64,000 bases of DNA, taken from positions 643,118 to 707,117 of the forward strand of contig CP064982.1 in the NCBI GenBank assembly GCA_016699595.1, written 5' to 3'. Of the stretch, positions 3,729 to 64,000 are shown piece by piece (position 1 is the stretch's first letter; each line of letters begins with the position of its first letter). The position numbers and the translations under genes were made by a program. The notes below the pieces were generated by a model. That model was not told the DNA's origin. It was given only the letters and a program-made list of their open reading frames with translations, and made no database searches. The DNA is from a bacterium (GTDB taxonomy: Bacteria; Patescibacteriota; Dojkabacteria; GCA-016699595).

Positions 3729-3765
3729 TCCTAAATTTTGATTAATTTTTGCTGATCAAACAATG

Positions 3766-4770
3766 TCAAAAACCTGCAGCCTTTCTTGTTTCCTTAATAA
3801 CTTCTGATATAAGTTTTTCATCAGATGAGAACTTATCTTTCATTGCTTCTTTCCCATTCGCGAGTTTTTCATCTTTGAAGCTAAACCAAGATCCAGACTT
3901 TGTCAAAATACTTTGAGATACAGCTGCATCTATAAGAGAAGAGATTTTGTCAATTCCATTTGGATATATCATATCAAATTCTGCTTCTTTGAATGGTGGG
4001 GCCATTTTATTTTTAATGACCTTGACTCTGCAAACATGACCTATGACTTGATCACCTTTTGAAATTTTCTCTATCTTTCTTATGTCCAACCTTACAGAAG
4101 CGTAAAACTTCAAAGCATTACCTCCAGTAGTGGTTTCTGGATTGCCGAACATTATTCCAATTTTCATCCTGAGCTGATTTAGAAAAACAATTGTAGTTCC
4201 GGCCTTACTTGATATAGAAGTTACCTTTCGCAATGCTTGTGACATCATTCTCGCTTGTAAACCCATGTGACTATCTCCCATATCACCTTCGATTTCTGCC
4301 TTTGGTGTTAGCGCGGCCACCGAATCAACGACTATAATATCAAATGCACCAGATTGAACGAACTTTTCCAATATGTCAAGACCTTGTTCTCCATAATCTG
4401 GTTGCGACAGGTACATATTATCTACATCAACTCCTATATTTTTTGCATAATTTACATCAAGTGCATGCTCTGCATCAATGAATGCTGCAACTCCACCTTT
4501 CTTTTGTGCCTCTGCAATTATATGCAGTGCTAGTGTAGTTTTGCCAGAACTCTCTGGACCATATATTTCAACAATCCTACCTCGCGGAATTCCTCCAATA
4601 CCCAGAGCAATGTCAAGTGATAAAGCGCCAGTAGATATCGCTTCAATATGCTCAATAGGTTTATCACCTAGTTTCATAACCGCTCCTTTGCCATATGATT
4701 TTTCCACTACACTCAATGTAGCTTCAATAGCTTTAAGTTTATTTGAGTCAATTTTTACTTTATCTGACAT
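3766..4770 (-). CDS. recA: recombinase RecA
   Basis: The conserved block [49 protein letters not shown] aligns with RecA from the Met at 4770. The ORF track extends to 4842 through an upstream in-frame Met. The stop codon is TGA. Confidence 0.95.
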
Positions 4771-4795
4771 ATACTTTTTGTTTATTAAGTTTGTT

Positions 4796-7126: not shown

Positions 7127-7185
7127 AATAAAGTTTTCTACCTAACAAACTTGGGGAACTTGTTCGGCAGCTAATAAATAAATTG

Positions 7186-27083: not shown

Positions 27084-28445
27084 TTGGACTTATCGACAAT
27101 TTGGAAAAAAACACAAACTCAGCTTGAAATCAGACTTGAACCTAGTACATATAATAGATTTTTCAAGTACACTGAATTGAAAAAAATTGATGAAGGTACT
27201 GCGATAATTGGTACCCATTCGACTTTTAGTTCAAACATTTTACAGACAAAACATAAAAAAACTATCAGCGATTTGCTTTCAATAAATTACGGAAAATTGC
27301 TCAAAGTTAAGTTTGAAGTTGATCCTGACATGGTAGACTTAGCAACTAAAGATAGATCTACTCTTTTAGTTGATGAGCTTCCTATTTTCCAAACGAATGC
27401 AAACCCAGACCTAACTGCGAAACTTGGCTACTGCAACCTGAATTCAAAGTTCACTTTTGACAATTTCATTGTAGGTGATTCCAATAGACTTGCTCATGCA
27501 GCTGCAACTTCGATTTTGAACAAAAAAAACAGGTTTAATCCCTTTTTTATATATGGAAAAACCGGACTTGGAAAAACTCATCTAGTTCAAGCAATTGGAA
27601 TATCTTTTCTTGAAAAAGATTTGTCTAAGAAAGTTCTATATGTTCCTTCAGAAACTTTTTTAAATGATTTAGTTCGATCTATTCGAACACAAACTACTCT
27701 TGATTTTCGAAAAAAATACAGAGAACTTGATTTGTTGATAATTGACGATATTCAATTGATTTCAAAATGGGTAGAAACACAAAATGAATTTTTCAATACT
27801 TTCAATGTGTTGAATTTGTCAGACAAACAAGTTATCTTGATTTCAGACAGACCACCAGAAGAGATCCAGAATTTAGAAGATAGGCTTAAGTCTAGATTCC
27901 AAGGAGGACTGTCTGTTAGTATTAGCGAACCAGAGCTTGAAACGAGATACGCTATTTTGTTGCAAAAACAAAAAGATCTTGAAACCAACTTAAGAAATGA
28001 GATCTTAAGAGATATAGCACGGATAGTTACTACAAATATCCGAGAACTTGAAGGTGCTTTGACTAAAGTCAATCTTATGCAATCACTCAAAGACTCAGAT
28101 TTGACAAGTGAGGAAGTTGCATCGATTTTGGGAAAAGAACATTCAGAGCGTAAAATCGCCAACCCGAATGATGTCTTGAGAATAATTGGAGCAGAGTATG
28201 GCGTAAGTTTACAGGAATTGAAGTCTGAGAGACGCACTGCCAATATCGCATTTGCTCGCCAGATCGCTATGTATATATTTGCAATAGAATTAGGTTTCAA
28301 ACTAGAGAAAATTGCAGAAATTTTGAAAAGGAAGGATCATACTACAGTTTTGCACGGTCGAAATAAAATAGAAACTCAAATGAAAATGGATGCTGGACTT
28401 CGAAGTAGAATTGAAAAAATTACCAATCAAGTCTTTTATAATTAA
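27084..28445 (+). CDS. dnaA: chromosomal replication initiator DnaA
   Basis: Walker A NPFFIYGKTGLGKTHLVQAIG, AAA+ motifs (LLIIDDIQ), and a C-terminal DNA-binding helix-turn-helix region ..ANIAFARQIAMYI..HTTVLHG. The start codon appears to be TTG. Confidence 0.95.
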   Translation: MDLSTIWKKTQTQLEIRLEPSTYNRFFKYTELKKIDEGTAIIGTHSTFSSNILQTKHKKTISDLLSINYGKLLKVKFEVDPDMVDLATKDRSTLLVDELPIFQTNANPDLTAKLGYCNLNSKFTFDNFIVGDSNRLAHAAATSILNKKNRFNPFFIYGKTGLGKTHLVQAIGISFLEKDLSKKVLYVPSETFLNDLVRSIRTQTTLDFRKKYRELDLLIIDDIQLISKWVETQNEFFNTFNVLNLSDKQVILISDRPPEEIQNLEDRLKSRFQGGLSVSISEPELETRYAILLQKQKDLETNLRNEILRDIARIVTTNIRELEGALTKVNLMQSLKDSDLTSEEVASILGKEHSERKIANPNDVLRIIGAEYGVSLQELKSERRTANIAFARQIAMYIFAIELGFKLEKIAEILKRKDHTTVLHGRNKIETQMKMDAGLRSRIEKITNQVFYN

Positions 28446-29248: not shown

Positions 29249-30283
29249 TTGATTTTGATCTTTTTTTGTGATTCAATACTAACTATAATGAATTATACAA
29301 GAAGGAATATAACTGCATCGAAACCTGGGACTAAGAAAGTTTTGGTAGCCAAAAAAATTGTTTTGGCTATTCTCTTTTTCTTGATTTCTGCATTTCTCTA
29401 CAGTCTCTATGCTCTAAAAATCCGCATCATTGATCTTGAAGGAAACGATGATAACTTGAAATCTCAAATCTATAGCGTTGTAGAGAAATATGAAAATACA
29501 AGATTTTTGTTTATATCTCCATCCAAACTACAATCTGAGTTAGATGAACAATTTGGAAGTGTCAGTATTATACAAGTTGACAAACTTTATCCAAATAAAT
29601 TAATCATTAAGTACGAAAAGGCTAAGCCTATCGCAAGAATCTTTTGCGAAGAAGACTCAGCAATATTGAGTAGCAATTTTTTGTTAATGAACATTGTAGA
29701 GCAGCCTAATTATAGGTTAGAGCCAAAATTACGGGCATTGCTGAAAGATGAAGTTACTGTAAATAATAACTCTATGTCGCAAAGCTCTACTAGCACAGAG
29801 AGTACTTTGGCATCATCAGCTATCGCTAACATTAGTTCCATTGCTTCATCATTAGAATCAAATAGTTTAAATATTACTCTAAACTCCGAAGAACTTTTGG
29901 CATCTAGAAGAACCATGTATTCTGATGCATTCAAATTTATAAATGATCTTAGAAAATCTGATTCTGTTACATCAGAAACTAGCTTGCTTGAGGTAGAAAA
30001 TTTACCATCTATCTTTTGCCTTGATTCCTCTGCAACAATAAATTTGGAAATGATAAAAAAGTTCAAAGAACTTCTAGAGAATGTTCCTTCAAAGGAAAAC
30101 AATGTCTTCATCATTGATAACAGATTTATCTATGACAATCAAGGTGTGATTGAAATATACTCCATACTTGAGTCTTATGAAGTTCAAAATTTTCGATTAT
30201 CAAAAGTCATGGAGCATCTAGAGATCGATGGACAAGGATATAGACAGATTGATATAAGAAGGGATAAGGTTGTCGTTTATTGA
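29249..30283 (+). CDS. FtsQ/DivIB-like cell-division protein (TM plus POTRA-like domain)
   Basis: TM LAILFFLISAFLYSLYAL followed by KIRIIDLEGNDDNLKSQIYSVVEKY..FLFISPSKLQSEL..SIIQVDKLYPNKLIIKYEKAKPIARI, which matches the FtsQ POTRA pattern. The true start is probably the Met of MNYTRRN near 29288. Confidence 0.5.
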   Translation: MILIFFCDSILTIMNYTRRNITASKPGTKKVLVAKKIVLAILFFLISAFLYSLYALKIRIIDLEGNDDNLKSQIYSVVEKYENTRFLFISPSKLQSELDEQFGSVSIIQVDKLYPNKLIIKYEKAKPIARIFCEEDSAILSSNFLLMNIVEQPNYRLEPKLRALLKDEVTVNNNSMSQSSTSTESTLASSAIANISSIASSLESNSLNITLNSEELLASRRTMYSDAFKFINDLRKSDSVTSETSLLEVENLPSIFCLDSSATINLEMIKKFKELLENVPSKENNVFIIDNRFIYDNQGVIEIYSILESYEVQNFRLSKVMEHLEIDGQGYRQIDIRRDKVVVY

Positions 30284-33872: not shown

Positions 33873-35015
33873 ATGTCTCAAATAAAACTTATAAAACTAC
33901 TTTCACTTTGTACAAACTTACTTTTTTGGAATAGTATTTGGCTTTTGTATTATCTTAAGTTTGTAAATAATCAGCAAATTGGAACTATAGAACTAATAGT
34001 GTTTTTCACAGCTCAAATATTCGAAATTCCAACAGGGTTTATTGGTGATAAAGTAGGTTGGAAAAAATCAGTACTTTTCGGGCTTCCATTTTTAGCAATT
34101 GGAAATATAGTTATGGGAGCAATTCCATCATTCAATGCATTTCTAGTCTCAGGTTTAATTATGGGAATTGGAGATGCTTTTTTATCAGGAAGCGTTCAGT
34201 CATTGCAATATCACACAGCAAAATCAGAAAGTTATGACTTTAGTAAACTTCAAAAGGAGATAAATAAATACAAAGCAATCGGAACTGTGATCGCAACTTT
34301 AGTTGGTGGATTGATTTTTATGGTTGATATTCATGTCCCATATTATCTTCGAGCGATTGGATTTTTGGCAGCTTTTGTGGTTACTTTGTTTATAAAAGAT
34401 ATCGAAATAGTTAATAAGGTTGATATTAAATCAGAAAAGAAAAAGCTGAAAGAAAATATAAAAAATTATTTAACAATTTTCAAAAAGTTGATTTCAATTC
34501 GAGAAATACTTGGAATTTCAATTGTCATGATTGTTTGTCAATTTGTATATCAATACTTATATGACTTTTCACTTATCAGAATTGGACTTGATTCTGCCGC
34601 ATTAACTATTCTGATGGTTTCAGCTTACATAATAAGTGCAATTTATTTCCATTTTCATGATAAAGTAGAATTTCTTTCTAGATATAAATATATTATATAT
34701 TTATCAACTCTGGTTCTAGTTTTAATAAATATCCGATTCATTTTAATAATAATTTCAATAATTAGACCAACTTTTTATCAACAAATAGAAAATGAAAGCG
34801 AAAAGATAATTTTGGATAATTCAAAAGCTGAGAATAGTGCTTCGAATCTCTCGGTAATTAATTTCTTACGAGGTTTAATTTATCCAATTGGGATCTTTGT
34901 AGTTGGAGGATTACTTGACAAAGGATTTTTCATGCAGATTATGTTAGTATTAATCTTGATATTTATCGTTGGTTTATTTATCAAAAATTTTAAACTTAAA
35001 AACTATGAAAAATAA
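33873..35015 (+). CDS. MFS-type transporter, probable
   Basis: About 10-11 TM helices with an MFS-like early motif (GFIGDKVGWKKSVLFGLPFLAIGNIVMG). Confidence 0.5.
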   Translation: MSQIKLIKLLSLCTNLLFWNSIWLLYYLKFVNNQQIGTIELIVFFTAQIFEIPTGFIGDKVGWKKSVLFGLPFLAIGNIVMGAIPSFNAFLVSGLIMGIGDAFLSGSVQSLQYHTAKSESYDFSKLQKEINKYKAIGTVIATLVGGLIFMVDIHVPYYLRAIGFLAAFVVTLFIKDIEIVNKVDIKSEKKKLKENIKNYLTIFKKLISIREILGISIVMIVCQFVYQYLYDFSLIRIGLDSAALTILMVSAYIISAIYFHFHDKVEFLSRYKYIIYLSTLVLVLINIRFILIIISIIRPTFYQQIENESEKIILDNSKAENSASNLSVINFLRGLIYPIGIFVVGGLLDKGFFMQIMLVLILIFIVGLFIKNFKLKNYEK

Positions 35016-35643
35016 ATATATAATACTCTCAACTTCAATAATTACAATTCTTCTAAATATTCTGGCAAATGCACTCCCACTTGCAGGAAATTCAACTAAG
35101 TTCGTTTCAGATAAGTTCTTCACACTTATAACCCCAGCTCCTTTTACTTTCATCATTTGGGGAGTCATTTATCTAACATGGCTTTATTTAACTTTTCTTA
35201 CCGTGAAAGAAAAGGTTGTAATTTCATCAAAGTTTACCAAACTATTTATGATATCTGGATTGCTCAACTGTTTTTGGCTTGTTATGTGGCACACTTTGAA
35301 TATTAATTTTTCAGTTCCAGTTATAATTTTACTTTTAGCTTCAGTCACTTTAGCATATTTAGAACTAAAGAAACTTGGTAATTCAAAATTAAACTTAAAT
35401 ATTTTTGCAATTTACTTAGGTTGGCTAATAGTTGCAAGTGTTGCTAATGTTTCAAGTATGCTTGTTGCAAATGGGTTTGGAGGTGATAAATTATTACTTA
35501 GTATTTCTCCGTATATTTGGAGAATGGCAATTTTAGCTGTTGCGTTTCTTGTTAACTTGGCATTTCTAATTCGAGAGAAAGTTTATACGCCAATGATAGT
35601 TTTGCTTTGGGCATATTTGGGTATATTTGTACAACAAAACTAA
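34969..35643 (+). CDS. TspO/MBR-family (tryptophan-rich sensory protein)-like membrane protein
   Basis: NALPLAGNSTKFVSDKFFTLITPAPFTFIIWGVIYL resembles the TspO N-terminal motif (..LP.nG..T.eis..y..lftPag.tFsIWg.IY). Five TMs. The real start is probably the internal Met of MKNKYI near 35005. Confidence 0.5.
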   Translation: MVYLSKILNLKTMKNKYIILSTSIITILLNILANALPLAGNSTKFVSDKFFTLITPAPFTFIIWGVIYLTWLYLTFLTVKEKVVISSKFTKLFMISGLLNCFWLVMWHTLNINFSVPVIILLLASVTLAYLELKKLGNSKLNLNIFAIYLGWLIVASVANVSSMLVANGFGGDKLLLSISPYIWRMAILAVAFLVNLAFLIREKVYTPMIVLLWAYLGIFVQQN

Positions 35644-37247: not shown

Positions 37248-38255
37248 TTGAAGGTAATTTCATTGATGCAAATTCTCAACTATTCACCACAAAACCCAGA
37301 CTTAACTTCAAAAAAGTTTGTATTCATCATAGGATCTCGCAAAATTACACAGAAAAGAATTATTGAACTGTTTATGAAATACGATACTTCTGTGTCTTCA
37401 ACACATCTCCCTTCTGAAGGGAGACAAAATACGCAGATTTTATGGGGAATTCTGAATGAAAAGTATATCAAAGGACTTGAAAATTCACCTCAATTCGAAA
37501 GTATGCAACTTGCATATTTAACTACTACTTTTGAAAAGTTTGCAAAGAAGTATCCTAAGTACAATTTAGACAATTTAACTATTCTCAAATATAATTTTGA
37601 TAATTGGAAAGATATTTTGCAAGAACTTGATTTTGAAAAAGTTATTTTGATAAATGCTTCATGGCACAGATCATTTCATAGAAGAGCTGAATATGAAATT
37701 TTGAAATCTCGCAACATTCCCTATCAATTTTCTAGTTCTTATTTTTCAGATGAAGAAGCAAAGTTAGATTCAAATGTTGATTATTCAAAGTTAGATAAAC
37801 TTATTGGAACTGAACTTCTTGAAACAGATACAGAATCTATTTGGAATATATTAAATGAGATCAAAGTTTATTCTTATGATCATCTTTTTCAAACGAGTTG
37901 CTTGATTTTGAATGATAATCAAATTCTTTCTTGGGGAGTAAACAAGATAATGCCTTATGAAACTTATGATTTTCATCATGTAAGTTCAAATGAAAAAATG
38001 CTAACTCCGATGAATAGTAGTGATGCACAAGATACAATTCATGCTGAGATGAATGCAATTTTGAAAGTTGGAAACAAAGATGACCTGAAAGGTGCAAAAT
38101 TATTTATAGAACTTATGCCATGTCCGTGGTGCGCTAAAGTGATAGCTGAAAGTGGAATCGGTGAAGTTAGTTGCAAACTAGTGCATAATGGAGGACATGC
38201 AGCAGAGCTATTTAAGGAAATGGGGGTGAGGATGAAGGTAATTAGAGAAATGTGA
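37248..38255 (+). CDS. cytidine/dCMP deaminase-family protein with a ~220-aa N-terminal domain of unknown function
   Basis: The C-terminal part SCLILNDNQILSWGVNK..HAEMNAILKVG..KLFIELMPCPWCAKVIAESGI has the H-A-E and P-C-x-x-C zinc motifs of the CDA fold. Confidence 0.65.
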   Translation: MKVISLMQILNYSPQNPDLTSKKFVFIIGSRKITQKRIIELFMKYDTSVSSTHLPSEGRQNTQILWGILNEKYIKGLENSPQFESMQLAYLTTTFEKFAKKYPKYNLDNLTILKYNFDNWKDILQELDFEKVILINASWHRSFHRRAEYEILKSRNIPYQFSSSYFSDEEAKLDSNVDYSKLDKLIGTELLETDTESIWNILNEIKVYSYDHLFQTSCLILNDNQILSWGVNKIMPYETYDFHHVSSNEKMLTPMNSSDAQDTIHAEMNAILKVGNKDDLKGAKLFIELMPCPWCAKVIAESGIGEVSCKLVHNGGHAAELFKEMGVRMKVIREM

Positions 38256-38270
38256 TTTCTGGTATAAATT

Positions 38271-39851
38271 ATGTCTTATCCAATCTTTTATAAAGAACAA
38301 CTCACAATTGGAAACCTGAATTCCAATGTCGGAATTGTTACCCTTTGGACTCCGAGGCAAACTTTTACTTCTAGACTTGATCCAAGTTCTTTTGCAATTT
38401 GTGGGCAACTTTATTCAAAACGAGGAATCAACTATATCATCCGAAACATTTTGGCAAATCCCATTATAGATACTTTGATAATTTGTGGAGCAAATAGATC
38501 AGAAAGTGCAGAAAGTTTGAAAAACTTTATAGATCTAGGAATTGATGAAAATCATAATGTCAAATCTTGCGAAAAATCTCCGGTTGACAAAGAAATTACA
38601 AAAGAATATTTAGAACTATTTAGAAAGAATATAAAGTATATTGATTTAACTGGCGAACTTAAGGCGAGTGAAATCCAAAAGAAATTAGATGAAATAAATA
38701 AAAATAATAATAACACTGAAATTAAACATTGGGCAGAACCGAAAGAATTTCCTATAGCTGAAGCTGAAACTGCAAGTGAATTTCCCAGTGAACAAAATGT
38801 TTTTAGTATTCGATCCGAATATGTAGATGAAGCTTGGATTCAGATTTTGAGACACATCATGAAGTTTGGAGAAGATAGTTATATGCTTTCAGGTGCTAAA
38901 GTGAAAGTTTTGAGTAATTTGATAGTTACAATTTCAAAAGAAGATCCAGATAAACCAGAACTTCCTGATTTTATGACTTTCAATCAAGGTGACCTCAAAC
39001 TTTATTACAAAGGTTTTTTTGAAAAAACTAAACAAAGTGAAGATTATGGGTATGGTGAGAGAATGTTCAATTATCCAAACCCACTGCAAGCCCCCATTGA
39101 AAAGGGGGAAAGTCACGAAGTGAGTGGGGGTTTACTTCTCAATCAAGTTGAAATAATTTACAAAAAACTCAAAGCTAGAAAATATGATGCGGGAGCAATT
39201 ATATCTATTTGGAATCCTTGGATTGACAATGGATCGTTTTTGAAATATTCAAATAATAGTGATAATGGAGTTCAACAAGTGAAACCCCTACAAACTCAGA
39301 ATGTTCCTTGTATGACACAACTTCAATTTTCTTATGTCAATCACAAGTTAAACCTAACTGCATACTTTAGATCAAATGATATGTTTGACGCATGGCCTAG
39401 AAATACTTTCGCACTTAGAAAACTTCAAATGATGCTTGCAACAAAACTTGGGATGAAAGTTGGTGAACTTACAACAATTTCAAATCTGGCTCAAATATAT
39501 GAACTGAATTATCAAAATGCAGAAGAAGTTATCAAGAAATTTGAAAACAAGATGTTTTGTATGCAAGATAAAAGAGGAAATTTGATAATGGAAATCGAAG
39601 AAAGAAATGGAGAACTTTTTATAATTGCAAAGCATATGAGCCGTGACGGAAACGAAGTTTTGCAAGCTTACTCAATTAATGGTAATGATACAAACTCAGC
39701 TCAAAAACTAGGTGATATCTTACTTTCAAATTTAGTTATCTCAGATCTTTCGCACAGCATGGATATTGGACGTGAACTTATGAAAGCAGAAATTGCAATT
39801 AAGTCAGGCAGGGCAAAAAATTATCAGCAGGATAAAGGCTTGGATCTTTAA
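38271..39851 (+). CDS. thymidylate-synthase-superfamily protein with an MtrA-like N-terminal domain and a C-terminal extension
   Basis: ThyA-family blocks: ISIWNPW, VPCMTQLQFSYV (nucleophile Cys), YFRSNDMFDAWPRNTFAL (Arg and Asn177 equivalents). GD(A/T)HxY is replaced by SNLAQIY. The N-terminal VGIVTLWT..AICGQLYSKRGINYIIRNILANPIIDTLIICGAN resembles the MtrA motif [38 protein letters not shown], recalled from memory. Confidence 0.55.
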   Translation: MSYPIFYKEQLTIGNLNSNVGIVTLWTPRQTFTSRLDPSSFAICGQLYSKRGINYIIRNILANPIIDTLIICGANRSESAESLKNFIDLGIDENHNVKSCEKSPVDKEITKEYLELFRKNIKYIDLTGELKASEIQKKLDEINKNNNNTEIKHWAEPKEFPIAEAETASEFPSEQNVFSIRSEYVDEAWIQILRHIMKFGEDSYMLSGAKVKVLSNLIVTISKEDPDKPELPDFMTFNQGDLKLYYKGFFEKTKQSEDYGYGERMFNYPNPLQAPIEKGESHEVSGGLLLNQVEIIYKKLKARKYDAGAIISIWNPWIDNGSFLKYSNNSDNGVQQVKPLQTQNVPCMTQLQFSYVNHKLNLTAYFRSNDMFDAWPRNTFALRKLQMMLATKLGMKVGELTTISNLAQIYELNYQNAEEVIKKFENKMFCMQDKRGNLIMEIEERNGELFIIAKHMSRDGNEVLQAYSINGNDTNSAQKLGDILLSNLVISDLSHSMDIGRELMKAEIAIKSGRAKNYQQDKGLDL

Positions 39852-55246: not shown

Positions 55247-56380
55247 TTAATCAATTCTCATCGTCATTATCAAATGAAGATAGTTATCTTCCCCATAAAA
55301 TAGTGCTGGAGAATTGGCATTTTTTGTTTGGAATATTATATCATCTTTTGAAAAACATCTCAAAGCATCTTGCAAGTACTTTAGATTGAATGCAATATCT
55401 AGTTCCTCTTGTCCTTGGTTTTCAACGATCATTGTTGTTTCAATTTTACCTTTCTCAATATCTGTTGAAAAAATTTTTAAATTCTTTCCTCTTAGTGAGA
55501 GTATAGTTTTATAACCAAGTAGATTTCTTGACACATTATTTACAATTTTCAAATTCATCAACATCTCATCTCTATTGAAAATAAATTTGTAACTTTCTTC
55601 TGTTGGAATTAAACTTTTGTAATCTGGGAAATTTGCATCAATTATTCTTGCAAAACAAGATATCTCATTCTTTTCAACAATTCTAAACTCAACTTGACTT
55701 AAATTTCCTTCTTTATCATCTATTGGGTATAGTTTTACTTGGTCAAAATCAAAATCAAGTAACGATTGAAATATTGATGCGTTTAATATAAATGGCTTTT
55801 TCAATTTTGACATTGTAGAAACTTCTAATTTGGCTAATCTAAAACCATCTACTGAAACAAGATGCACATTTTCTTTATTATCACTATTTAGAAAATCAAA
55901 GTAAATGCCCTCTAGTGCTGGTCTTGAAGGATCTTGTGATATTGAACTCAATAGTTTATCAACAATATTTTGAACTTCTTGCCTACTTAGTGTCATAAAG
56001 TTATCTTGGAAACTTTTGTCAAAGCTTGGAAATTCGTTTGACTCAGAAATACTAAAGTCTCCACTTGCAAAGTTTGTTTTCATCTCTAATTTATTTTTGC
56101 CAAAGTTCAACTCAACATCAACTTCTGGCAGTGAGCTTAGAAAACCTAGAAAATCTTTTGTTCCAATTGCAAAACTATCAAAACTTTCTAAGTTATCAAT
56201 TTCTGAAAAAGTATAAATAATTGATTTTTCAAGATCTGTTGCTTTTATTTGCAATTTACTTTCTTCAAATGAAAAAATGAGTTTTCCAAGTGAAGAGTCT
56301 ATCATCTTTGTAGATGAGAACTTTGAGATAGATACTAGTATCTTGGTTAATTTTGATGATGAAAATTTGAGTTTAGACAC
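55247..56380 (-). CDS. dnaN: DNA polymerase III beta sliding clamp
   Basis: N-terminus ..SKLQIKATDLEKSIIYTF and C-terminus YLQDALRCFSKDDIIFQTKNANSPALFYGEDNYLHLIMTMRID fit the DnaN pattern (YLlDaL...MPmRl). 377 aa. Confidence 0.8.
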   Translation of the reverse strand: MSKLKFSSSKLTKILVSISKFSSTKMIDSSLGKLIFSFEESKLQIKATDLEKSIIYTFSEIDNLESFDSFAIGTKDFLGFLSSLPEVDVELNFGKNKLEMKTNFASGDFSISESNEFPSFDKSFQDNFMTLSRQEVQNIVDKLLSSISQDPSRPALEGIYFDFLNSDNKENVHLVSVDGFRLAKLEVSTMSKLKKPFILNASIFQSLLDFDFDQVKLYPIDDKEGNLSQVEFRIVEKNEISCFARIIDANFPDYKSLIPTEESYKFIFNRDEMLMNLKIVNNVSRNLLGYKTILSLRGKNLKIFSTDIEKGKIETTMIVENQGQEELDIAFNLKYLQDALRCFSKDDIIFQTKNANSPALFYGEDNYLHLIMTMRID

Positions 56381-56760
56381 TTTGATTTGTTAAATTAATA
56401 TAATGTAAATTAATTAAATAAGATAAGTATTTTTATTAGAGACTGTATATATGTGCATAAGTCAATAATTATGAAACAGTAAATTACTTTGACCTATTTT
56501 AACATCTACATTTCTCAAAAACAAAAGTTATAGAAAAGTTTGTAGACAAAAGTTTATTATTAGTATATCTAGATTTTGTTAAGTATATATAAGGTAGTTT
56601 TCAAAGAATAAGAAGTTTATATGTCAATTACATTGTGGATGTAATTTTAAGTTGGTGTATAAAAGCTAAGAAAGTTAATTATGAAATAATATTCAAAAAG
56701 AGAAAGAAAGGAAAGTAAACATAAACTTTTATAAAGAAGAAATTTCACAATAAAGAAATT

Positions 56761-57198
56761 CTATAATTTCTTAGGATCAAATTGTTCAAAGCCAAAGTCC
56801 TTTGGTTGAAAAGTTAACAAGATTAAGTCATCAACAGATAAAACCTGACTTTTACTTTCCAAGTTATTCTGAACAATTGGTGGAATAGAAACATTATTAG
56901 TCAACCCATTAGCAAAATCAGACTCTAAAGAAACGGATGTACTTGAACTACCAGCTTGACCACTGTCAATGTTACCCATAGATATTAAATTATCAACTGA
57001 GAAATCTACTTGGGTAAGTTCAAAATCAAACTTCTCTTTGTCATTTTTTGCCCAAAAAACTTTGTGATTTAGGTCAACGAGGTCTTGTGTCAACTTAATC
57101 ATACTTTTAGTAATTTGAGTTTTCGTATTTACAAAAATATTCATATTAGATAAATTAAATATTGTAACTGAAAGGTTTGTTAATCTCTCCTCCACCAA
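56761..57198 (-). CDS. hypothetical protein (145 aa)
   Basis: ORF overlapping the upstream secreted-protein gene by 19 nt. No recognisable motif. Confidence 0.3.
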   Translation of the reverse strand: MVEERLTNLSVTIFNLSNMNIFVNTKTQITKSMIKLTQDLVDLNHKVFWAKNDKEKFDFELTQVDFSVDNLISMGNIDSGQAGSSSTSVSLESDFANGLTNNVSIPPIVQNNLESKSQVLSVDDLILLTFQPKDFGFEQFDPKKL

Positions 57199-57899
57199 AG
57201 TGCAAACTTTTTGAATAGAAAGATAAACAAAAAAATCAAAATTATGAACCCAAAGAACTTCAAACCGAATTTAATTCTTTCCCAAGTTTGATAATTTTTC
57301 TTAAATTCATCACTTTGAGGTGTAACTTGCAAATCCTTGTCAAAGTTAATAGTAATTGAAGTTACATCTGTTAAAGTCAAATCATTTTGCCAAGCTTGAC
57401 CATATATGTATATAGTTGTTGAACCTGACTTCTTGGGATATACATATAGTACAAAAGATTTTTTATCACCAATCTTCAATTTACCAACAACATTATTTGG
57501 AATAGACAATTCAACACTACTTTTATCGGGAGAAATGATATAGCTCAATTCAAACCTGTCAGTATCAATGAAAGATTCAATATTTAGTTCAATAGGTACT
57601 TTCAAAGAAAAAATATCTTGAATTCCTGGTTTTATTTTTAGAGAAAAACTATTTCCAGTACTATCTTTGATTACAAAATTTCCCTGGTTAATACTTGTTG
57701 AACTTGAATTCATCAATGGGTCTTCAGTTACTGAACTCGCTGAAACAATTGAACTATTAGTTGTAGAGACAAGCTCTTCTGCCGAGGTTTGTGAAGTAAG
57801 ACCCCATGCAGGCGTTACAAACAAACAGAACAACAATGTTGTTAGAAATATATATTTTTTCATATTAACTATATCATATAAAGGTAAAACAAACGTCAT
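57180..57899 (-). CDS. secreted protein with a C-terminal TM anchor (239 aa), hypothetical
   Basis: Signal peptide MKKYIFLTTLLFCLFVTPAWG (internal start likely). C-terminal FFGFIILIFLFIFLF plus KKFALWWRRD. Confidence 0.45.
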   Translation of the reverse strand: MTFVLPLYDIVNMKKYIFLTTLLFCLFVTPAWGLTSQTSAEELVSTTNSSIVSASSVTEDPLMNSSSTSINQGNFVIKDSTGNSFSLKIKPGIQDIFSLKVPIELNIESFIDTDRFELSYIISPDKSSVELSIPNNVVGKLKIGDKKSFVLYVYPKKSGSTTIYIYGQAWQNDLTLTDVTSITINFDKDLQVTPQSDEFKKNYQTWERIKFGLKFFGFIILIFLFIFLFKKFALWWRRD

Positions 57900-58164
57900 G
57901 TAAACTTTAAATTTACTTGAAGCAGTAATGCTTGTATTCTAAAAATTTAGAATTATAATTCTAGCTAAAATATTTACAAACAGATTATTTATAGATTATA
58001 AATAGCTATACATTTATACACTAAATGCAAAAAGTAATAAACTTGAAAATATATAAATTAAAAAAACGAAACAAAAATTGTTTACTTGCATTATTTTATA
58101 AAAATTGATAACCTACATCAATAAATTTAAATTAACCAATAGTTTTGTGATTGACTAAACAATA

Positions 58165-58509
58165 TTGGTAAAGAAATTAGTAATGCCCTTAATTGCTCAA
58201 AATCAAACAACGATCGATGTTGTAGCTAGACCTACCTTTGCTCAGAATTACTTTACTTCAAGTACGAAAACTTCAACCTTGACTTCTCAAAATGTACAAA
58301 CATCTTCAGTATCGAGTAAATCAAGTACTCAAGTAAGTTTATCTAGTATGTCAAGTCAAAGCGGACTTCCAAATAGTGCAATTGAATCAAGGTTTGTTTC
58401 AACAACTATTATAATTGTTTCAACAATTGTCATTCTACTATCAATATTTTTAAACTTCTTTAAGTACAAAAACTTACAAATTTTTGAAAAAACTATTTCA
58501 AAAGATTGA
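58165..58509 (+). CDS. small Ser/Thr-rich protein with a C-terminal LPNSA + TM + KYK anchor module; no clear signal peptide
   Basis: ..SSMSSQSGLPNSAIESRFVSTTIIIVSTIVILLSIFLNFFKYKN. The same LPNSAI motif appears in the 743-aa surface protein. Start codon is TTG, with a TAA two codons upstream. Confidence 0.4.
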   Translation: MVKKLVMPLIAQNQTTIDVVARPTFAQNYFTSSTKTSTLTSQNVQTSSVSSKSSTQVSLSSMSSQSGLPNSAIESRFVSTTIIIVSTIVILLSIFLNFFKYKNLQIFEKTISKD

Positions 58510-58539
58510 GATTGAAATTAAGGTTGAGCTCAGTTAAGT

Positions 58540-59652
58540 ATGTACCAAAAATTTACTTTCCAATCTACTAGTATGAATACCCAAGTAAAAGTTATTGCTT
58601 GGACAGACAAAGACGAACTTACTGTGAAAGATTACTTTAGCAAAGCAATCCAAGAAATTCAAAGGATAGAAAAACTCTATACTAGATTTCAAAAAGATTC
58701 ATACTTATCAAGCTTCAATAACAGGAAATTTACAGTAGTCACAAAAGAATTTTTTCAAATAGCACTGTTTTTGTTTTTTTTCGCCAGCAAGTCAGAGGAT
58801 TACTTTGATCCAACAATTATAGATTTCTTGGAAGCCTATGGATATGGCCCTGGATATCATTTTGAGAAGCTGAATAATGAAATTGAACTGAAAAAAAGTA
58901 TAGAAAAACTGAAAGCAAGTAGGCCAAGTATAAAAGATACGAAATTTAAAGTAATCCAAAATGGTATAGAGAAGTTCAAGTTTTCAATAGATGAATTTCA
59001 AGGTCAAGTGAAAAATGATCTCAAAAACCTTTTAGATTATGAGTTTAAAAGTTTAATTGATTTTGTAGATAAAGTATCAAACGATGAAGTTCAAAAGAAA
59101 ATTGAAGCAGATCAATTTAGTACAAAAACTTTTAGGAAAAAATTGCTAGGTCCAAATGACCAACACAACTTGCAGTTTGAAATAATACTTGCGCAAGACC
59201 AAAGGATTGAATTTGGAGGTTGTGGCAAGGGATATGCAATAGATAGGATGTATCATATACTTGAACCACTTGAAAACTTTGTGATAGATATAGGAGGTGA
59301 TATAAGGTGCTGTGGACAGATTGAAGAAAGAAATTGGACGACATCTATATATGGAACTTCAGATGCAATTGCAATGTTATCAGGGGATGTAGTTTGCGTA
59401 TCAGGTAAAGCTGCTAGGCAAGTAGGAAATTTCCATCACTTACTAAATCCCAAAGATGCAAACCCTACAGGAAGTTTTGATCAAATTTTGGTTTATGCAT
59501 CTTATAAAGATACTTGTAACCTCAGCCTTTTGACTACATTTGCTGATGCATATTCAACATTATCTTATGTATCACCAATAGAGAAAAACATGTTTTATGA
59601 AGTAGAAAACAAAGGTGTGTATAAAAAGTATATTAACACTTATTTAAATTGA
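58540..59652 (+). CDS. apbE: ApbE-family FAD:protein FMN transferase (with insertions)
   Basis: GGCGKGYAIDRMYHIL..NFVIDIGGDIRCCG matches the ApbE core (GiaKGyavD..LvnlGGDi..G). The N-terminal region reads ..YTRFQKDSYLSSFN. Confidence 0.65.
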   Translation: MYQKFTFQSTSMNTQVKVIAWTDKDELTVKDYFSKAIQEIQRIEKLYTRFQKDSYLSSFNNRKFTVVTKEFFQIALFLFFFASKSEDYFDPTIIDFLEAYGYGPGYHFEKLNNEIELKKSIEKLKASRPSIKDTKFKVIQNGIEKFKFSIDEFQGQVKNDLKNLLDYEFKSLIDFVDKVSNDEVQKKIEADQFSTKTFRKKLLGPNDQHNLQFEIILAQDQRIEFGGCGKGYAIDRMYHILEPLENFVIDIGGDIRCCGQIEERNWTTSIYGTSDAIAMLSGDVVCVSGKAARQVGNFHHLLNPKDANPTGSFDQILVYASYKDTCNLSLLTTFADAYSTLSYVSPIEKNMFYEVENKGVYKKYINTYLN

Positions 59653-59779
59653 ATTTGAAAAGTTTCCCTTTAAATAAATTATAAACACTGCTAATCCATT
59701 TTGGAAAATCCTTAAATAAGCAGTTAATAAGGTAGGTATACAAAAACAGCTCTAAGTTTGGCCCGTTCAAATTTGAAAC

Positions 59780-59808
59780 TTGACAGGAACATCTTTTTTT
59801 GATAAAAA
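59780..59808 (+). promoter_or_regulatory. sigma70-like promoter candidate for ftsA
   Basis: TTGACA (59780-59785), 17-bp spacer, TAAAAA (~59803-59808), ~55 nt upstream of the ftsA ATG. Confidence 0.35.
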
Positions 59809-59863
59809 TTGCGTAAGGATTACTTCAAATATGTGATTTCTTAATTTATTCTATATAAATAAT

Positions 59864-61219
59864 ATGAAAAAAATTATTGCAGGAATTGATATTGGCTCAA
59901 CAAAGATAGCTTGTATAGTATCTTCTGTAAAAGACGGTGAAGAACCAAAGGTAATAGGCGTTGCCAGTCAACCAAGTATGGGTATAAAAAAAGGTGTAGT
60001 AGTAAATATAGATCAAGCAACAAAAGCAATTTCTATGGTAGTTGAGGCTGCAGAAAGAATGGCAGGTGTTAGAGTTAATTCAGTTTATATAACCGTTAAT
60101 GGTAAACATCTGACTTCAACAAACAATAAGGGAGTTGTTGCAACGGCAGATCCAAATGAAATTTCGCAAAATGATGTACTAAGGGCAATTGAATCAGCAA
60201 GAACAATATCTATCCCATCATCTAGAGAAATAATTCATGTTGTCCCAAGAGAATTTATAATTGACACACAACCAGGTATAAAAGATCCGATAGGTATGAG
60301 TGGTTCTAGGTTGGAAGTAGATGCTCATATAGTCTCTGCAGTATCGAATTCACTACAAAATTTAGTCAAATGCGTAGAGGCATTAGGTTTGAATGTTACT
60401 GATATAGTTTTTACAGGTTGGGCTTCAACTATATCTACACTATCTGAAACAGAGAAACAGTTAGGTGTAACTCTTTTAGATATTGGTGGCGGAACTACAT
60501 CAATTTGTTCTTTTATTGAAGATGCAATTACATACTCAGGTTCGTTGGAGTATGGTGGAATGAACTTAACTTCGGATATGGCTATAGTTCTAAGGACTAC
60601 TCTTGAGGATGCTGAGAAATTAAAAATAAATCTTAATAAAGTAATAGATTATAACCTTAAAACAAAATTGAAAGGTTCCGATGATGCAACAGCTTACCAA
60701 AGGTTGATGTCACCAAAAAAAGACAAAAAGGAAGATGAGCAAATTAGTATTGAAGAAGAAAAGGACATGTTGGATATCTCAATTCTCAACATAGGTAACT
60801 TGCAAATGGTTTCGAAAAAAATGATTGAAAGAATCATAGAAGCAAGACTCAAAGAAATCTTTGGAATGTGCAAAGATCAAATTGAACAAGCAGGTTTCAA
60901 TCCGAGAATGCCAGCAGGTGTTGTAATTACAGGAGGATCAGCTATGATACCCGGCATTGCACAAATTGCACAGTCTGTGTTTGGAATCCCAGCGCGAGTT
61001 GCATATCCAAAAGGTTTAGGCGGGATGATAGAAGAAGTAGAAAACCCTCAGTTTTCTGCACTTCAAGGTTTGATAATGCATGCTGCTGTTTATGGAATGG
61101 ATAATGAACCACAGTTGAAAACAGGGAATACATTGAGGGGCAATGGTTCAGTTGAGGATAATTTGAAAGGAGGGATATTTGATAAAGTAAAAAGAATTTT
61201 CGGAGGAATGAAAGTATAA
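59864..61219 (+). CDS. ftsA: cell-division protein FtsA
   Basis: MKKIIAGIDIGSTKIACIV..VIGVAS..GIKKGVVVNIDQATKAI. Actin-like ATPase motifs (LDIGGGTTSI). C-terminal amphipathic membrane-targeting helix GGIFDKVKRIFGGMKV. Confidence 0.9.
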   Translation: MKKIIAGIDIGSTKIACIVSSVKDGEEPKVIGVASQPSMGIKKGVVVNIDQATKAISMVVEAAERMAGVRVNSVYITVNGKHLTSTNNKGVVATADPNEISQNDVLRAIESARTISIPSSREIIHVVPREFIIDTQPGIKDPIGMSGSRLEVDAHIVSAVSNSLQNLVKCVEALGLNVTDIVFTGWASTISTLSETEKQLGVTLLDIGGGTTSICSFIEDAITYSGSLEYGGMNLTSDMAIVLRTTLEDAEKLKINLNKVIDYNLKTKLKGSDDATAYQRLMSPKKDKKEDEQISIEEEKDMLDISILNIGNLQMVSKKMIERIIEARLKEIFGMCKDQIEQAGFNPRMPAGVVITGGSAMIPGIAQIAQSVFGIPARVAYPKGLGGMIEEVENPQFSALQGLIMHAAVYGMDNEPQLKTGNTLRGNGSVEDNLKGGIFDKVKRIFGGMKV

Positions 61220-61221
61220 AA
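61166..61221 (+). repeat. direct repeat copy 1 (56 bp, 3' end of ftsA including stop)
   Basis: aaaggagggatatttgataaagtaaaaagaattttcggaggaatgaaagtataaaa. Copy 2 at 61981-62036 differs at one position. Confidence 0.8.
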
Positions 61222-61232
61222 ATTAAAATAAA

Positions 61233-61979
61233 ATGAAATTAAACACGAAAAAAGTAATATTTATAATTTTGGGAGTAATATTTGCAATACTTCTAGTGTT
61301 AATCGTTATAGATTCTATTGCTATTTATGAAAACCGCGATAATTATTCTGGTAACATTAAGTGCAGTTTACAAAATATTCCGATACTTAGAAGAATCTGT
61401 GGAGATACTAGCGATATTATTGTTAAGAAACCTGCACTTTACTTTTATCCGGTTCAAACTGAAGAAATAAATGTCAAACTAAACTTTGAAGGAAATATAT
61501 TCAAATATCCAGCTTATGATAATGATCTTGGTTGGAATATAGTAGCTAAACCAACAGGCGAATTAAATGTTGGAGATAGAAGTTATGATTATTTATTTTG
61601 GGAAGGAAAAACTGAGGCAAGTTTAAACTTTGACCTTACTAAAGGATTTATTGTTAAAAAAGAAAATGTAGTAAATTTTCTTGAAGAAAATTTAAGTAAG
61701 TTTGGACTAAACGATAAAGAAAAGTCGGAATTTATAATTTACTGGGCACCAATAATGCAGGGAAATGAAAATACTTTAGTTCATTTCGCAACAAAGGGAG
61801 AATACGATGATATACTTCCTATAGAGATTAGTCCTAAACCAGATAATTTTAATAGATTGTTTATGGTTATTAAGTCTGTTTCTAGTAAGTATAGAGTAAC
61901 CGAACAAAGCATTACAAAGTTTGATAGAAGTGGATACAATGTTTTAGAATGGGGTGGAGCAAACTTAGATGAAAAATGA
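61233..61979 (+). CDS. N-terminally anchored extracytoplasmic protein (248 aa), hypothetical, inserted between ftsA and ftsZ
   Basis: TM VIFIILGVIFAILLVLIVI followed by a ~220-aa soluble domain with no recognisable motif. Preceded by a good RBS and flanked by a 56-bp direct repeat. Confidence 0.5.
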   Translation: MKLNTKKVIFIILGVIFAILLVLIVIDSIAIYENRDNYSGNIKCSLQNIPILRRICGDTSDIIVKKPALYFYPVQTEEINVKLNFEGNIFKYPAYDNDLGWNIVAKPTGELNVGDRSYDYLFWEGKTEASLNFDLTKGFIVKKENVVNFLEENLSKFGLNDKEKSEFIIYWAPIMQGNENTLVHFATKGEYDDILPIEISPKPDNFNRLFMVIKSVSSKYRVTEQSITKFDRSGYNVLEWGGANLDEK

Positions 61980-61980
61980 A

Positions 61981-62036
61981 AGGAGGAATATTTGATAAAG
62001 TAAAAAGAATTTTCGGAGGAATGAAAGTATAAAAGA
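61981..62036 (+). repeat. direct repeat copy 2 (56 bp), untranslated duplicate of the FtsA C-terminal coding sequence
   Basis: aaaggaggaatatttgataaagtaaaaagaattttcggaggaatgaaagtataaaa, immediately after the stop of the inserted 248-aa ORF. Confidence 0.8.
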
Positions 62037-62072
62037 TGTTGATCCAAAAGTTTGTGAGATACTAAATACTTT

Positions 62073-62558
62073 ATGCAAGAGATCAAAAGAACCACAATAC
62101 TTTTTCCGATTATTCGAGATGAGCAGAGGTCAATTACACAAGTTTGGCTCGCAATGAAGAAAAGGGGATTCGGAGTAAATAAGTGGAATGGTGTTGGAGG
62201 CAAGCTTGCTGGAGCTGAAACATTTGAAGAAGCCGCTATTCGTGAAGCAAAGGAAGAAATTGGAATTGATATACTAAATTTGAGCAAATATGCAGAGATA
62301 AGTTTCAAATTCGAAAATGGGCTTCAAATATTTAGTGAAGTTTTTCTTTCTGATAGTTGGAGCAACGATCCTGCAGAATCAGAAGAAATGATGCCAAAAC
62401 TATATGATATTCAGAATATCCCCTATGATCAGATGTGGGGTGATGACAAAAAATGGTTACCATTAGTTTTAAACTTTGAAAAGTTACAAGCCAGCTTTGA
62501 ATTTGATCTAGAGGATAATATAATTAAAAGAGAAATAGTGAAAATTAAGGAATTTTAG
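62073..62558 (+). CDS. Nudix hydrolase, MTH1/NUDT1-like 8-oxo-dGTP diphosphatase
   Basis: VWLAMKKRGFGVNKWNGVGGKLAGAETFEEAAIREAKEEIGIDI closely parallels the MTH1 segment [40 protein letters not shown]. Confidence 0.8.
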   Translation: MQEIKRTTILFPIIRDEQRSITQVWLAMKKRGFGVNKWNGVGGKLAGAETFEEAAIREAKEEIGIDILNLSKYAEISFKFENGLQIFSEVFLSDSWSNDPAESEEMMPKLYDIQNIPYDQMWGDDKKWLPLVLNFEKLQASFEFDLEDNIIKREIVKIKEF

Positions 62559-62598
62559 TTAAAATATTAAATACACAAACTGCCGAAATAAAAAATAA

Positions 62599-63951
62599 AT
62601 GTTAATACAATCATCAAACAACAACTTTGCAAAAATAAAAGTAGTGGGAGTAGGAGGAGGAGGAGGCAATGCTGTGAATAATATGGTTTTGAACTACATG
62701 ATTGAAGGTGTAGAATTTGTGTCAGCCAATACAGACGCACAGGCACTTGCAAACAATAATGCAGAAGTAAAGCTTCAACTTGGACCAGAAACGACTAGAG
62801 GGCTTGGTGCTGGCGGAAATGCTAGCGTGGGAAGAAAGGCGGCAGAAGAATCTACAAGCGCAATTCAAGAGATGGTTGCAGGAGCTGACATGGTCTTTGT
62901 TACAGCTGGTATGGGTGGTGGAACTGGCACAGGTGCTGCACCAATTATTGCTAAAATTGCAAAAGAGGCAGGAGCATTGACAGTTGGGGTGGTAACAAAA
63001 CCATTTGAATTCGAAGGCAAAAGAAGGATGGTTAATGCCTTAGAGGGTATCCAAGAAATGGTAGGAGCTGTTGACACATTAATTGTTATTCCAAATCAGA
63101 GATTACTAGATATTGTAGATAAAAATGTAAGTTTTTTTGAAGCAATGAGGAAGGTTGATGATGTTTTGGGCCAAGCTGTCAAGTCAATAGCTTCGCTTGT
63201 AGTTTCTCCAGGTCTTATCAATGTCGATTTTGCTGATGTTAAGACCGTAATGACAAATGCAGGAACTGCACTTATGGGAATTGGTACAGCTCAAGGTGAT
63301 GATAGGGCAATTGAGGCTGCCAAAATGGCAGTAAACTCACCGTTGCTTGATGTGACTATAGATGGAGCAACTGGGGTGCTGTTCAATATTTCTGGTGGTC
63401 CAGATGATTTGACAATGACAGAAATTGATGATGCTGCAAAGCTTATACATCAAGTAGTTGATCCAGAGGCGAATATTATATTTGGTGCAACAATCGATCC
63501 GAATATGAAAGGTACAGTTTCAATAACAGTTATTGCTACAGGGTTTAGAGAAGATGTAAATCAATATGGTGATTATCAAGACCGCACTGATCTTGCTGAT
63601 ATGAGCAAGGCTCATACTACAAGTCAGGATTTCTATACACCAACATTTTCAATTCCTAGCTACAATATTAACGAAAGTCAAAAAGATAAAGCTGATGAAT
63701 ATAACTTAGGGGATTATCGAGAAAATGCGCTGGTTGATGACACTATAGAATTTGATGAAGTTGATAATGAGGAGAAAGCGGAGTATCCAAATTATGTAAA
63801 TTATGTGAAGCAAGAAAGTATTGATCCTCAAACGCAAAAAAATGAACCTAAAGCAGGATTTATGAGGTTTCCATTTGCAAAAAAGCAAGAAGATATAGAT
63901 CCAAATACAAATATGGATGATTTTGATACTCCTGCAATATTTAGGAGTTAA
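62599..63951 (+). CDS. ftsZ: cell-division GTPase FtsZ
   Basis: [18 protein letters not shown] (tubulin signature), ..[24 protein letters not shown].., T7 loop NVDFADV. Long acidic C-terminal tail. Confidence 0.95.
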
Positions 63952-64000
63952 GTTTGCTGACTTTCAAAACTAATTTGGTTATTGAGATTCAATCGTTGAG

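Follow-up and report, generated by a model that had tools for sequence, protein, structure and literature searches.

The DNA examined here, which we call the window, is a 64,000-nucleotide (nt) stretch of contig CP064982.1 (assembly GCA_016699595.1, a metagenome-assembled genome) from an uncultured member of the Dojkabacteria. The locus of interest lies near its right end, where a gene for a 248-residue protein (open reading frame, ORF, 248) sits between the cell division gene ftsA and a nudix hydrolase gene followed by ftsZ (locus protein accessions QQR93487-QQR93490). ORF248 is bracketed by two nearly identical copies of a 58-nt segment that includes the final codons of ftsA. Comparison with a related strain makes it nearly certain that this arrangement represents a real insertion/deletion polymorphism with duplication of the target, and we give about an even chance to the full reading, namely a strain-specific 813-bp insertion at the extreme 3' end of ftsA that is explained by Campbell-type integration. 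The features of the locus are as follows.

59864-61219, forward strand: ftsA, intact, 451 amino acids (aa), matching Pfam FtsA and SHS2_FTSA and NCBIfam TIGR01174 (E 6.8e-113).
61164-61221, forward strand: repeat copy 1, made of the last 18 ftsA codons, the TAA stop and 2 nt.
61222-61976, forward strand: cargo of 755 nt, in which an A/T leader of 11 nt precedes the 248 sense codons of ORF248; missing from the empty-site relative.
61233-61979, forward strand: ORF248, with a predicted N-terminal transmembrane helix and a beta-rich extracytoplasmic domain of ~190 aa; its TGA stop falls inside repeat copy 2.
61976-62032, forward strand: potential 18-codon mini-ORF, MKGGIFDKVKRIFGGMKV*, predicted from sequence, created at the junction and overlapping the ORF248 stop as ATGA.
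61977-62034, forward strand: repeat copy 2, the putative displaced pseudo-tail of ftsA.
62073-62558, forward strand: nudix (MutT-like) hydrolase gene, Pfam NUDIX (E 1.4e-11), with the database name 8-oxo-dGTP diphosphatase.
62599-63951, forward strand: ftsZ, Pfam Tubulin and FtsZ_C.

The identities first proposed for ftsA, nudix and ftsZ were confirmed by Pfam and NCBIfam. Repeat finding and DNA search found exactly two copies of the 58-nt direct repeat in the window, with starts 813 nt apart. The copies agree at 57 of 58 positions, and the sole mismatch, at repeat position 11 (G at 61174 versus A at 61987), is synonymous in the FtsA frame (GGG/GGA, Gly). No match to the repeat arose in 100 dinucleotide-preserving shuffles of the window, and a rough analytic estimate puts the chance expectation at ~4e-21. 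The window has no other long dispersed repeat, except for those within a repetitive surface-protein gene at 7.4-9.0 kb. The original prediction, made from this DNA alone, had described a 56-nt repeat with one mismatch; the single mismatch holds, and the length is 58 nt, a value within the 56-58 range given in its header. It had also placed copy 2 after the ORF248 stop codon, which is incorrect: copy 2 opens with this TGA, the cargo ends right at the last sense codon, and the stop is borrowed from the repeat. The predicted geometry of an ORF-bearing cargo between two repeats was right, with the size of ~760 bp corrected to 755 nt. The one-gene unit carries 66 nt of non-coding sequence.

An empty version of the site was found in Logan contig SRR30164251_67133 (L018; 10,699 bp), which comes from another sample. 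It was recovered through a nudix search (homolog P0146, 96% identical); FtsA searches of genomes and metagenomes returned only distant relatives, the named homologs being Candidatus Dojkabacteria and the best match outside the species only 62% identical. By blastn, L018 aligns to window positions 56411-61221 at 98.0% identity and to 61977-64000 at 97.6%, skipping 61222-61976 and one repeat copy, and the two alignments overlap by exactly the 58-mer (L018 4755-4812). The contig reads ...GATAATT[58-mer]GATGTTGATCC..., that is, the left flank of copy 1, a single repeat copy and the right flank of copy 2, otherwise unchanged. Since L018 has a single 58-mer, the window carries an 813-bp insertion/deletion polymorphism comprising 755 nt of cargo and 58 nt of duplicated target. 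The gene order in L018 is ApbE-ftsA-nudix-ftsZ; ftsA is thus followed directly by nudix and ftsZ, as a search of relatives for an empty site was expected to reveal, and this supports the prediction that an insertion or recombination made use of the ftsA 3' end or duplicated it. Of the 451 FtsA residues, 2 differ between the window and L018; at the codon level there are 14 synonymous and 2 non-synonymous changes, and we read the pair as probably two strains of one species. Both the occupied and the empty allele encode an FtsA of 451 aa with the conserved C-terminal helix kept. In the L018 nudix gene (4851-5336), codon 20 is an in-frame TGA instead of the TCA of the window, and the called start is Met28, giving 134 aa; the gene could be truncated or decaying, or the stop could be a sequencing error.

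The 58-mer of L018 is identical to copy 2, and copy 1 alone has G at position 11 (61174). At this one site, the pattern fits a scenario in which copy 1 arrived with the insert and copy 2 is the displaced original. The polarity might instead be reversed, with the occupied allele older and the L018 allele produced by precise deletion between the 58-nt repeats, a rival that we regard as unlikely. It concerns direction only, as the occupied allele would still require one of the origins weighed below. Direct repeats of 58 nt and a recA gene would make precise deletion easy, and the mismatch of 1/58 (1.7%) is similar to the strain divergence of ~2%, so the duplication need not postdate the split. 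Against this, L018 has A at position 11, whereas a crossover in the 47 identical nt to the right of the mismatch would leave G (a weak argument, from one site), and ORF248 follows ftsA in none of the more distant relatives. The single polymorphic site therefore mildly favours gain over loss in L018.

We considered whether the second repeat copy could be an assembly artefact, either a chimeric join or an artificial duplication, as a single full assembly of the strain is on record and an A5 homopolymer lies at the junction. Two further assemblies speak to this. Logan contig L023 (SRR11674035) encodes the window's own nudix protein and matches the window at 100% identity over 1,996 nt; L024 (SRR11673978) encodes a near-identical variant and is 99.8% identical. 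The first base of either contig is window position 62005, so that each opens with exactly the last 30 nt of copy 2. Logan assembles its contigs from 31-mers, none of which occurs twice within the contigs of an accession (PMC12424806). A contig start k-1 = 30 nt inside the repeat end is explained if the reads continue the last 31-mer of the repeat in two ways, here with A, leading into ORF248, and with G, leading to nudix. L018 runs unbroken through its single 58-mer. No exact match to the FtsA or the ORF248 protein is on record in other assemblies, Logan included, which for FtsA in Logan would be the expected outcome of contigs breaking in the repeat. Both repeat-to-flank junctions are therefore supported by two further read sets, since two independent assemblies of two runs break exactly where a true repeat predicts. 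In addition, the copies differ by one base, the cargo is an intact conserved gene, and the 761,814-bp contig with its complete-genome style of accession suggests long reads. An artefact, which had been named as the outcome that would refute the insertion, is contradicted by the positions of these breaks and appears very unlikely, with a probability close to nil.

Repeat copy 1 encodes the FtsA end ...LKGGIFDKVKRIFGGMKV*. The core of this tail, IFDKVKRIFGG, has a helical hydrophobic moment of 0.68, and the tail aligns with a motif common to the other listed relatives, mostly Dojkabacteria. The motif is of the type G-x-F-G-K-[IV]-K-x-F-x-K-N-L-[LM]-P in most other listed FtsA homologs, with a variant in the closest relatives. 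The membrane-targeting sequence of FtsA is described as a C-terminal amphipathic helix (PMC4252000, PMC8897712). Because the tail is conserved, is amphipathic and agrees with this established role, copy 1 is taken to be the native functional end of ftsA with a predicted membrane-targeting function, and by its sequence the window FtsA would belong to the class with a conserved C-terminal amphipathic membrane-targeting helix.

The second copy raises the question of function. The ATG of the mini-ORF is formed from the last A of the cargo and the TG of the repeat. The second copy might have been retained as a free peptide, a membrane anchor or a cis-element, and each version has something to recommend it. 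In the first, an 18-aa free amphipathic peptide would be translated through coupling to ORF248 via the ATGA; this overlap and the intact mini-ORF are what it draws on. In the second, the helix would become a C-terminal anchor on ORF248 by -1 frameshifting on A AAA A, or because an A6 was mis-called as A5; one more A in the A5 run at 61972-61976 would indeed fuse ORF248 to the helix, giving ...LDEKMKGGIFDKVKRIFGGMKV*. In the third, a cis-element in the ftsA 3' end would be required for nudix-ftsZ expression, and the duplication does preserve the native 99 nt that copy 2 keeps ahead of nudix-ftsZ. Several observations argue against all this. The C-terminal helix is absent from ORF248 homologs, and the ORF248 domain is predicted to lie outside the cell, where a membrane-targeting helix of the FtsA type makes little sense. 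Neither significant RNA structure nor a terminator nor an Rfam match was found in the 58-mer with its flanks (fold z-scores -0.15 and +0.67; the 58-mer itself folds at -4.1 kcal/mol, z -1.67), and we rejected an RNA element, terminator or riboswitch in the repeat on these results. An in-frame TGA and an A before the TG would occur together by chance with a probability of ~0.1, which is unremarkable, and the single synonymous difference between copies gives no power to detect selection. A retained function is therefore highly improbable; most likely, copy 2 and its 18-codon mini-ORF were simply left over from the event and have no role of their own. The case illustrates how pseudo-tails and junction mini-ORFs can originate, and the risk of mis-annotation that they bring.

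The cargo gene itself appears complete. ORF248 is full length relative to its homologs and finishes at a conserved EWGGxE motif. It has no match in Pfam, NCBIfam or PADLOC and only a marginal one in PHROG (E 0.0085). In the AlphaFold model (mean predicted local distance difference test, pLDDT, 85.6), a transmembrane helix at the N-terminus is connected by a disordered linker to a beta-rich domain that includes two helices and for which no fold match was found in the PDB. Twenty-two homologs at 35-45% identity occur in unrelated contexts, and a profile search retrieved 8,262 clusters at 50% identity with E <= 0.001 and 4,909 with E <= 1e-30. The ORF248-type domain of ~190 aa is usually C-terminal in its proteins, and its partners in larger proteins include SH3_3, Big_14, LRR_5, subtilase, CarboxypepD_reg and BlaR1-M56. 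On account of these partners, the domain is taken to be extracytoplasmic or exposed at the surface, and ORF248 is predicted to be a membrane-anchored protein of a large uncharacterised family. It stands for an extracytoplasmic domain family of more than 8,000 such clusters that has neither a Pfam model nor a solved structure. We also considered ORF248 as a substitute for FtsQ/DivIB, being a bitopic protein in a division cluster without an upstream ftsQ. This was rejected because neither a POTRA match nor any fold similarity was found, and because a POTRA protein is encoded at 29249-30283.

The composition of the cargo (GC 0.292, GC at third codon positions 0.193, codon chi-square 60) is typical of the window's genes. 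The donor was therefore similar in composition, or the gene has long resided in such a genome, and recent transfer from a compositionally different donor was set aside. A ribosome-binding site of its own had been claimed for ORF248, but no Shine-Dalgarno sequence lies upstream. None would be expected, as a Shine-Dalgarno-like core precedes only 1 of 48 gene starts in the window; leaders are A/T-rich (e.g., AAATAAA), and translation initiation in this genome appears to be largely independent of Shine-Dalgarno sites.

The comparison shows an insertion, or its precise loss, together with a 58-bp target duplication; the route by which it came about is inferred. As the mechanism, we tentatively favour a Campbell-type single crossover, with a probability that we would place a little short of even. 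A small circular DNA of 813 bp, carrying ORF248 and a copy of the ftsA tail, would have undergone one reciprocal crossover with the chromosomal ftsA tail, giving the order target copy, cargo, target copy. Copy 1 would keep ftsA complete, and copy 2 would be left as a pseudo-tail that supplies the ORF248 stop. Host RecA could carry out the crossover on the 58 nt of homology, or a recombinase acting in trans could do so, and the same repeats would permit precise re-loss of the gene. The proposal draws on the target-cargo-target geometry with scar-free junctions, which is the textbook product of a single crossover, and on the presence of recA in the window:

3766-4842, reverse strand: recA (Pfam RecA, E 7e-135), a possible host recombination function for the 58-nt homology.

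Several points weigh against the Campbell proposal. For the circle to carry the ftsA tail, ORF248 must have been joined to that tail beforehand, so the model explains spread better than first origin. A length of 58 nt is short for RecA-dependent recombination, and the event would be rare. The cargo holds ORF248 alone, without a recombinase domain, and no recombinase gene adjoins it. Searches for the cargo brought up neither a circle nor another copy nor a donor, the best homolog being 45% identical; no repeats surround ORF248 homologs elsewhere, including four on IMG/VR contigs; and the 58-mer has no match in IMG/VR. Finally, only one polymorphic site tells which repeat copy is the newcomer.

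The main rival is a one-step illegitimate or template-switch event, which we consider possible but unlikely. In such an event, 755 nt of ORF248 would be copied or joined and ftsA re-entered 58 nt behind the point of departure, through template switching at a fork of the type known as microhomology-mediated break-induced replication or fork stalling and template switching (MMBIR/FoSTeS), or through homology-facilitated illegitimate recombination (HFIR) anchored on ftsA; in a variant, a 58-nt staggered break would be filled in with captured DNA. This would be a true origin, with no earlier joining of ORF248 to the tail required. It would agree with the lack of a recombinase among the scanned ORFs, of att-like (attachment-site) structure and of inverted repeats. 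The genome-typical composition and codon usage would fit an origin within this genome or one much like it, and HFIR is documented in several bacteria (PMC3240628). Junction microhomologies are present as well, TGAAA at the left edge of the repeat, which would include the ORF248 stop, and AAAA at the right edge, but these are short and A/T-rich and carry little weight. The cargo is moreover trimmed to one ORF, with 11 nt before the start and 0 after the last sense codon, which is unlikely for random switches; a one-step event explains such a tight fit only if the stop codon of ORF248 was itself the microhomology. No second copy or source of ORF248 was seen in 5.8 billion protein clusters, the density of single-nucleotide polymorphisms in ftsA beside the junction is not clearly raised, and no donor tract is visible.

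A further possibility is that ORF248 and its 58-bp site form a non-autonomous, site-specific cassette moved by a tyrosine or serine recombinase in trans. This would be a miniature integrative element, similar to a cis-mobilisable element or an integron cassette, for which the ftsA 3' end serves as attB and the element carries the replacement tail. The geometry resembles attL/attR, the identity segment has a length seen in integrase systems at gene 3' ends, and the minimal one-gene unit with its little non-coding sequence is integron-cassette-like. On IMG/VR contig L020, two large serine recombinase genes flank a distant homolog of ORF248 (35% identity). These features are at 1147-2868, 3641-4588 and 5803-7350 of that contig, and a gene for an Mrr-type restriction endonuclease is found nearby. 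We nonetheless judge the cassette explanation improbable. A Pfam scan of ~45 window ORFs found no integrase, transposase or reverse transcriptase and no other recombinase; the 58-mer has neither dyad symmetry nor a GTTRRRY core; no further copy of the site exists in the window or in IMG/VR; the ORF248 homologs elsewhere are without flanking repeats, as noted above; and a single instance is known.

A broader version of this idea would make ORF248 with its 58-bp tail a member of an undescribed class of recombinase-less single-gene cassettes in the candidate phyla radiation (CPR), integrating at the 3' ends of essential genes with a replacement tail. These could be moved by a trans-acting recombinase, or by reverse transcription of mRNA and target-primed insertion with a long duplication. 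We hold this to be very doubtful. If true, such a class would help explain the variability downstream of ftsA in the lineage. A dedicated mechanism, should one exist, would be a new way to move single genes in organisms with few classical mobile elements, but the evidence does not require it.

Two other candidate systems were rejected. A diversity-generating retroelement with template and variable repeats (TR/VR) is not indicated, as no reverse transcriptase occurs among the scanned ORFs, a difference is seen at just 1 of 29 adenines, and the second copy belongs to the insertion. A dif/Xer-type element was dismissed because no dif-like palindrome was seen by eye in the 58-mer.

The position of the insert is best viewed against the neighbourhood of ftsA in related genomes. 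In the more distant Dojkabacteria L001, L002 and L006, ftsA is directly followed by ftsZ. In the closest relatives outside the species it is not: the order is ftsQ-ftsA-recA-ftsZ in L011; ftsA, two small ORFs, recA and ftsZ in L014 and L015; ftsA and then a 3098-aa surface protein in L016; and ftsA and then an opposite-strand ATP-binding cassette transporter in L017. No duplication of the ftsA tail was found in the ftsA-ftsZ intervals of relatives that hold other genes. In the window genome, nudix separates ftsA from ftsZ in the empty allele too, and recA and the FtsQ-like gene are elsewhere, recA ~56 kb from ftsA and the POTRA/FtsQ-like gene (29249-30283) adjoining dnaA. These gene orders indicate that the ftsQ-ftsA-ftsZ cluster is eroded in this sub-lineage of Dojkabacteria and that the region downstream of ftsA is a recurrent site of gene turnover, so a gene landing there is less surprising. 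The original prediction had stressed the broken ftsA-ftsZ adjacency as unusual; here the surprise is low, with nudix already between the two genes and the adjacency also broken in the closest relatives. Adjacency of ftsA and ftsZ is an unsafe assumption in this lineage.

The insertion is thus real and tidy, and fairly ordinary. Its value lies in providing a clean natural before/after pair for gene gain in a tiny CPR genome (one contig, 761,814 bp). An insertion in the coding end of an essential division gene was tolerated because the codons for the membrane anchor were duplicated.

Other features of the window were recorded in passing. Two large DUF11-containing surface-protein genes (4796-9417, reverse strand) have internal repeats of 56-65 nt, two copies of which are 100% identical (8150-8214 and 8345-8409), and they deviate strongly in codon usage (chi-square 418 and 499, versus ~50-140 for other genes). 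A 526-aa ORF (38271-39851, forward strand) is an unusual fusion of an MtrA-like N-terminal region with thymidylate-synthase-like and PterinBD-DUF4346 regions, and the gene beside it (37248-38255) has a dCMP/cytidine deaminase domain. The genes dnaA (27084-28445, forward strand) and dnaN (55247-56380, reverse strand) are not adjacent but 27 kb apart on opposite strands. Two forward-strand ORFs, a major facilitator superfamily (MFS) transporter at 33873-35015 and an ORF with no match at 34969-35643, overlap by 47 nt and may represent a frameshifted gene or a homopolymer assembly error.

Compared with known systems, the insertion has an unusually long target duplication and no recognisable mobile-element machinery. 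Insertion sequences (IS) and transposons share with it a direct target duplication flanking the insert, but their known duplications are 2-15 bp. The 58 bp seen here are far too long, the cargo ends have no terminal inverted repeats or hairpins, and no transposase was found, so an IS, transposon or miniature inverted-repeat transposable element was rejected. Integron cassettes consist of an ORF plus an attC site of 57-141 bp, and the tightly packed promoterless ORF with a ~60-nt site, implying a circle of 813 bp, is reminiscent of them. The 58-mer, however, lacks an imperfect dyad and GTTRRRY on either strand, there is no intI among the scanned ORFs, no attI and no array, and the site is ftsA coding sequence; an integron cassette was therefore also rejected.

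Islands and integrative plasmids that target tRNA genes likewise use direct repeats of tens of bp to regenerate the target gene 3' end, and pSAM2 in tRNA-Pro has an att identity segment of 58 bp. Here the target is protein-coding, the cargo is one gene, no integrase was found, and the nearest tRNA gene is ~30 kb away, with none within 30 kb, which led us to reject a tRNA-linked island. HFIR and template switching resemble this case in that DNA is inserted without mobile-element functions, with short similarities at the junctions and a possible adjacent duplication. Their cargo usually has ragged ends, whereas here it is trimmed to one ORF with scar-free junctions.

The closest documented parallel is the integration of e14 in the icd gene of Escherichia coli. 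The e14 element is a prophage-like element of ~15 kb that integrates site-specifically with its own integrase. With e14 and phage 21, as here, the insert lies inside the 3' end of a housekeeping gene whose end is duplicated with the reading frame intact (PMC6379469). The displaced original end remains on the far side as a pseudo-tail, a 163-bp pseudo-icd' duplication in the case of e14, and in both systems the copies differ only conservatively or synonymously (PMC6379469). The difference is one of scale and machinery: the window has a 755-bp cargo of a single non-recombinase gene, a 58-bp duplication and no integrase among the scanned ORFs. As in the e14-icd type, the flanking direct repeats match the single-copy sequence at the empty site, and the insert-proximal copy restores the ftsA reading frame. 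The insertion would thus be best filed beside e14 in icd, as a putative integration that regenerates the 3' end of its target gene without recognisable machinery.

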